DNA of 64,000 bases, from contig JBFWOS010000001.1 of assembly GCA_050250375.1 (NCBI GenBank), positions 27,346-91,345 of the forward strand, read 5' to 3'. Below are positions 26,921 to 27,148 of this stretch, piece by piece. Positions within the stretch are counted from its first letter, which is position 1, and each line of letters starts with the position of its first letter. The position numbers were made by a program, and so were the translations under genes. Source of the DNA: Candidatus Omnitrophota bacterium. Lineage in GTDB: Bacteria; Omnitrophota; Gorgyraeia; Zapsychrales; Zapsychraceae. The notes under the pieces were generated by a model, which saw nothing but the letters and a program-made list of their open reading frames with translations, was not told the origin of the DNA and ran no database searches.

Positions 26921-26993
26921 GCCCTCGTAGCTTAATGGATAAAGCCCTTGTCCGACTAACGAGATGATGCAGGTTCGATTCCTGCCGAGGGTG
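26921..26993 (+). tRNA. tRNA-like gene with aberrant anticodon loop (anticodon GAC, C33, U37); possible pseudo-tRNA or tRNA mimic
   Basis: Hand-folded cloverleaf. Acceptor stem GCCCTCG/CGAGGGT (G1-U72 wobble); D stem GCTT/AAGC with an 8-nt loop containing GG; anticodon stem CTTGT/ACGAG; 5-nt variable loop; perfect T arm GCAGG-TTCGATT-CCTGC. Loop CCGACTA violates the U33/purine37 rules. No encoded CCA. Confidence 0.4.
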
Positions 26994-27119
26994 TAATACA
27001 TCATTTGGCTCAAATATAATCTCCGGACAAGGATATTTGAGCCAATAATTTTTCTTGAACAAACGGCCATCCGTAGCTATACTTTAATTGTCGGACAAGG
27101 ATTATAAGCTACGAGCCAA

Positions 27120-27148
27120 GGCCAGGAGAAATCCTGGCCTTTCTTTTT
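27120..27148 (+). terminator. rho-independent terminator
   Basis: GGCCAGGAgaaaTCCTGGCC hairpin followed by TTTCTTTTT. Confidence 0.55.

Follow-up and report, generated by a model that had tools for sequence, protein, structure and literature searches.

The question raised by one short block of the 64,000-nt Candidatus Omnitrophota sequence analysed here (contig JBFWOS010000001.1; hereafter the window) is why a gene with the fold of a tRNA, but with an anticodon loop atypical of elongator tRNAs, should be followed by segments antisense to its own 5' half and by a terminator. The initial annotation had offered two answers: the scar of an integration event at a pseudo-tRNA, or a single structured RNA of roughly 230 nt in which a tRNA mimic engages in antisense pairing. 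The answer that appears probable on balance, from the sequence and from related loci, is a self-contained cassette of two RNA genes, in which a trans-acting antisense RNA (the partner) would capture and unfold a non-decoding tRNA mimic.

The first gene is called as a tRNA-Val(gac) at 26920-26994 by ARAGORN, and the Rfam tRNA model (RF00005) matches 26921-26993 of the plus strand with 53.9 bits against a gathering score of 29, the latter with the cloverleaf that the initial annotation had drawn. Folded alone, the 73-mer has exactly this cloverleaf as its minimum free energy (MFE) structure (-23.9 kcal/mol), and the D- and T-loop nucleotides responsible for tertiary contacts in canonical tRNAs are all in place. 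The acceptor stem opens with G1:U72, the discriminator base is G73, and CCA is unencoded, as had been noted. The 7-nt anticodon loop is C32-C33-G34-A35-C36-U37-A38 (CCGACUA), with neither the U33 nor the purine-37 of canonical elongator tRNAs; this loop, previously described as atypical, is truly aberrant, because U33 is present in 133 and purine-37 in 135 of the 136 control tRNAs analysed. The gene product is a tRNA-shaped RNA descended from tRNA-Val(GAC), which retains the full determinants of the L-shape and the GAC triplet. With C33 and U37, the normal U-turn and the purine-37 stack probably cannot form, and normal decoding is therefore unlikely. Alternative anticodon registers (Arg CCG and shifted loops) were tried by hand, and none had a paired stem. 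A promoter-like site (P1, TTGATA-18-TAATAT with an extended -10 TG; 26876-26905, plus strand) lies about 15 nt 5' of the gene, and sites judged comparable by reading the sequences precede the tRNA-like genes of two other Omnitrophota (loci L092 and L124).

Two stretches of the tRNA-like gene, CTCGTAGCTTA (26924-26934) and CCTTGTCCGAC (26946-26956), are perfect 11-nt complements of 27105-27115 and 27090-27100, respectively. Within the 64 kb, CTCGTAGCTTA occurs twice and CCTTGTCCG, the seed of the partner, three times, every occurrence being inside this block. Of the two antisense segments originally proposed, both are indeed complementary to the gene, but the two perfect 11-mers belong to the second, and the first (27018-27045) contains a match of only 9 nt (27024-27032, to tRNA-like positions 26-34). 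These nine bases lie in the loop of a trailer hairpin (27005-27053, plus strand) composed of a 13-bp perfect stem (27005-27017/27033-27045) and a 15-nt loop and followed by UAAUUUUUC; pairing of the loop with tRNA-like positions 26-38 is calculated at -16.1 kcal/mol. L124 and L092 have an equivalent hairpin whose loop contains GUCGG, and a U-tract stands 3' of the hairpin in all three Omnitrophota loci. The hairpin probably terminates the tRNA-like transcript. In the window, the U-tract overlaps the -35 element of a second promoter-like site (P2, TTGAAC-17-TATACT; 27055-27083, plus strand), of which TTTTTCTTGA and TATACTT are kept in all three Omnitrophota modules.

From the TTGA of P2 to the first antisense base is 35 nt, and transcription is expected to start at G27090, where the long antisense segment begins. 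The predicted partner is a small RNA of about 59 nt (27090-27150, plus strand), whose 5' 26 nt comprise two antisense blocks with a 4-nt linker between them: block 1 (27090-27100) is antisense to tRNA-like positions 26-36 (the anticodon loop and the 5' strand of its stem), and block 2 (27105-27115) to positions 4-14 (the 5' strands of the acceptor and D-stems). The partner thus reads as the reverse complement of tRNA-like positions 4-36, with 11 nt (the D-loop and the 3' strand of the D-stem) exchanged for 4 nt. An intrinsic terminator stem (27118-27141) and a T-tract come next, in agreement with the terminator already recognised there. No start codon is visible in the partner by inspection, and the open reading frames (ORFs) of at least 50 codons that overlap the block, the only sizes searched, are both on the minus strand, with none on the strand of the tRNA-like gene and its partner. 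Since a hairpin and U-tract separate the two parts and the predicted promoter start coincides with the first antisense base, the simplest reading is of two transcripts, a tRNA-like precursor ending at the trailer hairpin and the partner RNA, rather than a single RNA of about 230 nt.

One genome per species was scanned for the loop CCGACTA at the correct spacing from a standard T-arm. Most matches were due to chance or lay in long variable arms, and among the matches listed at least 17 further cloverleaf "tRNA-Val(gac)" genes carry the CCGACUA loop on different stems, giving a family of at least 18 loci in four phyla, at least 15 of them with partners. They are found in Omnitrophota (L092, L124), in Nanopelagicales/Planktophila-type and other Actinomycetota (L010, L013, L024, L031, L038, L055, L058, L067, L103, L119, L123), in Solirubrobacterales (L100, L106), in Acidobacteriota (L117) and in Eremiobacterota (L118). 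In the family alignment, 17 of the 21 cloverleaf pairs show compensatory change, and U8, A14, G18G19, G53-T54-T55-C56, A58 and C61 are invariant, every tertiary-contact nucleotide being kept; these genes therefore encode tRNA-shaped RNAs under selection, and their interpretation as decayed pseudogenes was rejected.

A segment antisense to the loop and 5' half of the adjacent tRNA-like gene was identified in 15 of the 18 loci, each time with a promoter-like site before it and a terminator hairpin after it. Of the 15 loci examined, 14 have a recognisable TTGA in the -35 element, and in 12 of these the TTGA and the first loop-complement base are 34-37 nt apart, which predicts that the 5' end of the partner is the anti-anticodon-loop sequence itself. 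Seven loci, including that of the window and both of its Omnitrophota relatives together with those of Solirubrobacterales, Acidobacteria and Eremiobacterota, have the partner 35-105 nt downstream on the same strand; the eight loci of the Nanopelagicales/Planktophila type have it about 140 nt upstream on the opposite strand, and the opposite strand also encodes the partners of L153 and L154. At the DNA level, tRNA-like gene and partner therefore form an inverted or a direct repeat depending on the lineage. Because only the antisense relation between the RNAs is constant, pairing in trans is favoured over attachment (att) sites, terminal inverted repeats (TIRs) or an obligatory fold of one transcript.

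This arrangement bears directly on the idea of a single RNA of roughly 230 nt, which would fold in cis and toggle as a switch between the cloverleaf and a long-range helix. The same-strand downstream partners of seven loci are compatible with such a molecule, as are the long-range helices in the MFE structure of 26915-27150 (z = -7.1 against shuffled sequences for this 236-nt region) and the long-looped trailer hairpin, which the promoter/terminator scan did not flag as a terminator. A cis fold is impossible, however, where the partner is encoded on the opposite strand (eight loci plus L153 and L154), and it leaves without explanation both the -35/-10 elements conserved 34-37 nt before the antisense start and the U-tract after the trailer hairpin in every Omnitrophota locus. 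A single switching transcript is accordingly quite unlikely.

The specificity of the pairing was evaluated on curated units, a first alignment-score matrix having been confounded by neighbouring tRNA-like paralogs. With the constant loop removed from both sides, so that tRNA-like positions 1-31 were compared with the body of the partner, cognate duplexes averaged -26.1 kcal/mol versus -15.1 ± 5.1 kcal/mol for non-cognate ones, and none of 100,000 random re-pairings was as good; exceptions in rank occurred only between paralogs or close relatives. In a fixed register (tRNA-like positions 27-36 against GUC plus 7 nt of the partner; 12 distinct units), 93% of the cells are paired and both sides have changed in 7 of the 10 intermolecular pairs, with a covariation score of 0.553 versus 0.166 ± 0.039 when shuffled (reached in 0 of 500 trials) and 0.09-0.15 in slid registers. 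Where L124 and the acI-type (Nanopelagicales) loci have mismatches, these are G·U-compatible. The tandem extra units of L117 and L123 differ in loop sequence (CUGACGA and UUGACUA), matched by UCGUCAG and UAGUCAA in their partners, so that the loop/seed pair co-varies even outside the constraint of the search pattern. The complementarity is thus both present and co-varying in homologous loci, which supports the antisense-paired tRNA mimic that the initial annotation had envisaged.

As a negative control from the same sequences, antisense matches to the equivalent region do not exceed 7 nt in 123 of 131 other tRNAs. The outliers include a paralog in L117 and AT-rich 10-mers in phage tRNA-Arg genes of L132 and L138; the two looked at in detail, in L093 and L098, are ordinary direct duplications of tRNA fragments. 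The case of L098 (approximately 1915-1990, minus strand) consists of a tRNA-Phe(GAA) gene with a direct copy of about 59 nt of its 3' part (D-arm 3' strand to CCA) about 170 nt downstream, which is the classic att-type repeat of an integrated element, in contrast to the cassette.

Thermodynamic calculations indicate how the partner might act. Its first 28 nt are unstructured in the predicted fold, and its cofold with the tRNA-like RNA reaches -61.4 kcal/mol versus -43.1 kcal/mol for the two apart, a gain of about 18 kcal/mol; with these 28 nt shuffled, the cofold has -48.5 ± 2.7 kcal/mol. Only the T-arm of the cloverleaf survives in the complex. In the proposed mechanism, the 5' GUCGG of the partner would nucleate on the exposed loop sequence CCGAC (five base pairs, four of them G-C), then invade the 5' strand of the anticodon stem, skip the D-loop, and, in the D- and acceptor stems, pair with the 5' strand of each. 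The cloverleaf would be opened down to the T-arm, and a compact fold that resists nucleases would give way to an open duplex whose 3' half is free; the opened mimic would be sequestered or exposed to nucleases, so that the partner would control how much of the mimic is folded. Altered bases at positions 32, 33 and 37 would both reinforce the seed and prevent normal decoding. Valine identity depends mainly on A35 and C36, and the retention of GAC together with the whole L-shape suggests that the mimic still engages the tRNA-binding machinery.

The cassette is an accessory element. In freshwater actinobacteria it occupies one junction, between genes for an oxidoreductase of the old yellow enzyme (OYE) type and a 147-aa protein. 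Across many assemblies, the junction may hold a full module (426-454 nt) or be empty (85-86 nt), even on contigs that encode the identical 147-aa protein (L152, empty, versus L153, full). A 139-nt form represents a single deletion of about 280 nt relative to the full junction, with breakpoints in the loop of the tRNA-like 3' hairpin and in the loop of the partner terminator hairpin, which share CAGTATC, and one junction is of 159 nt (L157). Since one deletion spans both genes in the 139-nt form, the tRNA-like gene and its partner are gained or lost together. One metagenome-assembled genome has two copies (L010, L119). In L010, L013, L055, L067, L103, L119 and L153, the 3' hairpin loop UGAUACUG is complementary, as RNA, to the loop CAGUAUCG of the partner terminator; the stems of these Nanopelagicales-type hairpins differ and co-vary between species, and their loops are the breakpoints of the deletion scars in L139-L148. 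This loop-to-loop complementarity, like the anti-loop sequence of the trailer hairpin, may represent kissing contacts or repeats that mediate loss of the cassette.

Such a distribution argues against a core gene, and with it against a working tRNA-Val(GAC) isoacceptor whose level in translation is tuned by the antisense RNA. ARAGORN and Rfam do call a tRNA with intact tertiary nucleotides, and the copy in L124 directly follows 5S rRNA, a normal position for a tRNA gene. Yet C33 and U37 are essentially absent from real elongator tRNAs in the control set, the discriminator is variable whereas A73 is typical of tRNA-Val, the whole gene comes and goes among strains with identical neighbouring proteins, and tandem paralogs carry further aberrant loops, all of which makes participation in translation very unlikely.

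Integration scars, att sites and the TIRs of a small mobile element that arose from a tRNA gene would instead place the function of the repeats in the DNA. tRNA genes are common targets of integration, acI-type cassettes have been lost by recombination between hairpin loops that share CAGTATC, and the cassette of the window is bounded by direct repeats of about 49 nt that contain a hairpin, the left copy (26721-26769, plus strand; 83-86% identical to the right) including the palindrome GGAACGGTC..GACCGTTCC and overlapping the stop codon of an ORF6N gene, and the right copy (27180-27227, plus strand) forming the right boundary. These flanking repeats may explain how the cassette moves, but not its internal antisense design. 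The 22-nt 3' end of the tRNA-like gene has no second copy in the 64 kb with up to three mismatches allowed; true att-type repeats among the controls are direct copies of a 3' part and look different; G·U-type mismatches are tolerated; and the relation of gene to partner is inverted or direct according to lineage, so that no single DNA structure is conserved. On these grounds the att-site and TIR interpretations were rejected, and the integration scar of the initial annotation, which likewise fits poorly with compensatory changes and with a partner that has its own promoter-like site and terminator, is highly improbable.

The palindrome of the flanking repeats resembles repetitive extragenic palindromic (REP) sequences (GGAACGGTC, 0-3 nt, GACCGTTCC) and occurs at 17483-17514, 26735-26765 and 27194-27218, the latter two copies bracketing the cassette. 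This dispersed palindrome could be a family of terminators or a site of recombination or mobility. An IS200/IS605-type palindrome-associated element or a REP-flanked cassette was also considered: two direct hairpin-repeat copies flank the module of the window and a third is found at 17483; the modules of L124 and L092 lack hairpin-repeat flanks, and no transposase was seen.

What the two RNAs would do for the cell is a further question. One alternative is that the partner is the real effector, a small RNA that regulates mRNAs, and that the tRNA-shaped RNA is its stable sponge or decoy. Sponges derived from tRNAs are an established concept, the 3' external transcribed spacer (3'ETS) of the leuZ tRNA precursor soaking up RyhB and RybB in E. 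coli. The cognate specificity and covariation described above apply equally to this arrangement, and the long unstructured 5' region of the partner is typical of seed-bearing small RNAs. It is difficult, however, to reconcile conserved mRNA targets with partners that diverge freely while matching their own tRNA-like RNA; the seed CCTTGTCCG has no other occurrence in the window beyond the block; and the antisense region spans 22-30 nt in two blocks tailored to tRNA architecture. In 3'ETS-leuZ and here, an RNA from a tRNA locus pairs with a small RNA, but 3'ETS-leuZ is the spacer by-product of a functional tRNA operon, whereas the pairing site here would be the mature body of an aberrant tRNA, anticodon loop included. 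On balance, a sponge is an unlikely explanation.

The role preferred here, tentatively, is that of an RNA-only module resembling toxin-antitoxin (TA) systems, or serving addiction or defence, in view of the logic of a stable target and a labile antisense RNA, the accessory multi-copy distribution, the orthogonal paralogs and the defence-island setting. The putative effector would be the stable tRNA mimic, through interference with valyl-tRNA synthetase (ValRS), EF-Tu or the ribosome, and its neutraliser would be the labile antisense RNA. It is conceivable, at a similarly modest level of confidence, that the toxin of such a TA or abortive-infection module is a stable tRNA-Val mimic unable to decode, which either obstructs ValRS, EF-Tu or the ribosome or causes frameshifting at GUY codons, and that the antitoxin is a labile antisense RNA seeding on the anticodon loop; paralogous cassettes would stay orthogonal through changes in the loop/seed pair.

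Known systems resemble the proposed module in part, the nearest in mode of action being antisense pairs of the linear-to-loop kind and the RNA-RNA pairs of type VIII TA systems. In type I TA systems such as hok/sok and in RNA-IN/RNA-OUT of IS10, as here, a short dedicated antisense RNA is encoded beside its single target, pairing would begin where a single-stranded 5' end meets an exposed hairpin loop and then propagate, and the cassette is accessory and variably present. The target here is tRNA-shaped, however, with no mRNA and no encoded peptide (no toxic-peptide ORF was found among ORFs of at least 50 codons, the target being the tRNA-like RNA itself), and the antisense RNA comes from a separate gene, an inverted or direct copy, instead of from overlapping transcription. 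Type VIII TA systems (SdsR/RyeA, CreT/CreA) share with the putative module two RNA components and neutralisation by base pairing, and CreT also acts through the tRNA pool; the adjacent pair of RNAs that characterises this type is represented here by cognate pairing and covariation. The differences are that no Cascade or other protein partner is involved and that the putative toxin is a tRNA mimic rather than a small RNA or a tRNA-sequestering mini-mRNA. The valine-accepting tRNA-like structure (TLS) of plant viruses, B. cereus tRNA-Other, YrlA and mascRNA exhibit comparable L-shaped mimicry with a non-standard anticodon region, and the valine anticodon bases A35-C36 are retained here in a manner reminiscent of TLS-Val, but none of these is known to have a cognate antisense RNA gene. 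T-box RNAs also read an anticodon by Watson-Crick pairing, unlike the partner in that they possess a specifier-loop architecture, an antiterminator/NCCA contact and a downstream regulated gene, and in that the partner would extend its pairing into the tRNA stems and disrupt them.

Several observations weigh against a conserved two-gene cassette of this function. Transcripts, their 5' ends and their stability are all deduced from sequence. The discriminator varies among the tRNA-like genes (G, U or A), which makes conserved charging by ValRS less credible, and the invariance of the CCGACTA loop is no evidence because the set was ascertained on that loop. Among the 17 loci assessed (all except L024), no partner was found within reach in L031 and L038; the tRNA-like genes of L031 and L038 have the lowest or truncated scores against the tRNA model (42.6 bits; 47.0 bits with acceptor ends unaligned), a weak hint of decay given that some partnered copies score as low. 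In L124 (4025-7091, minus strand), the module lies immediately downstream of 23S and 5S rRNA genes, the usual position of a distal tRNA in an rrn operon, and many of the genes neighbouring the loci are housekeeping genes. The anti-loop sequence of the trailer hairpin, which occurs in Omnitrophota, L024 and L123, has no role accounted for in the model. Finally, part of the complementarity could derive from inverted duplication rather than selection, an origin disfavoured by the G·U-compatible drift, the conservation of promoter-like sites and terminators, and the strand-independent arrangement.

Searches for an already described equivalent were negative. Rfam 15 recognised the tRNA part alone in the window and in the other loci, a permissive E-value adding only noise; the T-box model had no match even at E ≤ 10, and the genes downstream are unrelated across loci; the YrlA model (RF02553) scored 15.1 bits against a gathering score of 69. 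BLAST comparison with phage and plasmid records returned only generic tRNA similarity, a metagenome scan with a narrow partner-promoter pattern had one chance match inside a coding region (L126), and viral scans either came back empty or turned up odd phage tRNAs within tRNA arrays, without modules. The literature searched, in which subscription journals are thinly covered, contained no description of a tRNA-like RNA of bacteria that has a cognate antisense gene. The module is rated as a new kind because it lacks the defining features of canonical tRNAs (U33 and purine-37), att scars, type I TA systems, T-boxes and YrlA, with literature coverage incomplete and a function predicted from sequence.

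If the interpretation is correct, a class of RNA-RNA modules has gone unrecognised in at least four phyla, including the abundant genome-streamlined acI actinobacteria of freshwater; it would comprise a bacterial tRNA mimic of a new kind and a natural RNA that reads an anticodon loop and then unfolds the tRNA, and would possibly add a protein-free principle of toxin-antitoxin action or defence. Annotation files these genes as ordinary tRNA-Val(GAC), so that decoding capacity is miscounted. The loop/seed pairs resemble ready-made orthogonal RNA-RNA switches.

Other non-canonical tRNA-like genes were encountered. Two Terriglobia sequences (L042, 4672-4759; L099, 6719-6806) encode an 88-nt "tRNA-Ala(ggc)" with a long variable arm and the loop UCGGCAA, which also has C33. 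Three viral contigs (L128, 4822-4893; L132, 504-575; L138, 8778-8849) have a tRNA-like gene with a very short anticodon loop around CCCGACTAGGGG, assigned a 2-base anticodon by ARAGORN, within large tRNA arrays; no antisense partner was seen.

The cassette of the window lies between the ORF6N gene and a gene for a DUF4056 repeat protein, with KilA-N, Bro-N and DUF1016 genes nearby. Comparison of the neighbourhoods of the loci revealed no protein family shared across phyla. Directly beside the cassette is a low-GC island (30000-54000, 36-45% GC) of defence and mobile genes, encoding a type I restriction-modification system (HsdR/M/S), a DndB-like protein, a D12 methylase, a 951-aa ORC/CDC6-like ATPase, a DUF1016 nuclease-like protein, RhuM, Bro-N and KilA-N. 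In close relatives, whose loci were reached by way of the DUF4056 protein (78-87% identity), the corresponding position lacks a tRNA, and the cassette is not syntenic. Two 28-nt direct repeats (27248-27275 and 27310-27337; 75% identical, 62 nt apart) lie in the interval that separates the right hairpin repeat from the DUF4056 gene, whose 3' end faces it. In one relative (L004, 2254-2996), the DUF4056 gene is followed by an ORF6N remnant with runs of GATAAGG/GTGATAA-like repeats on both sides, suggesting that ORF6N genes sit in small repeat-bounded cassettes.

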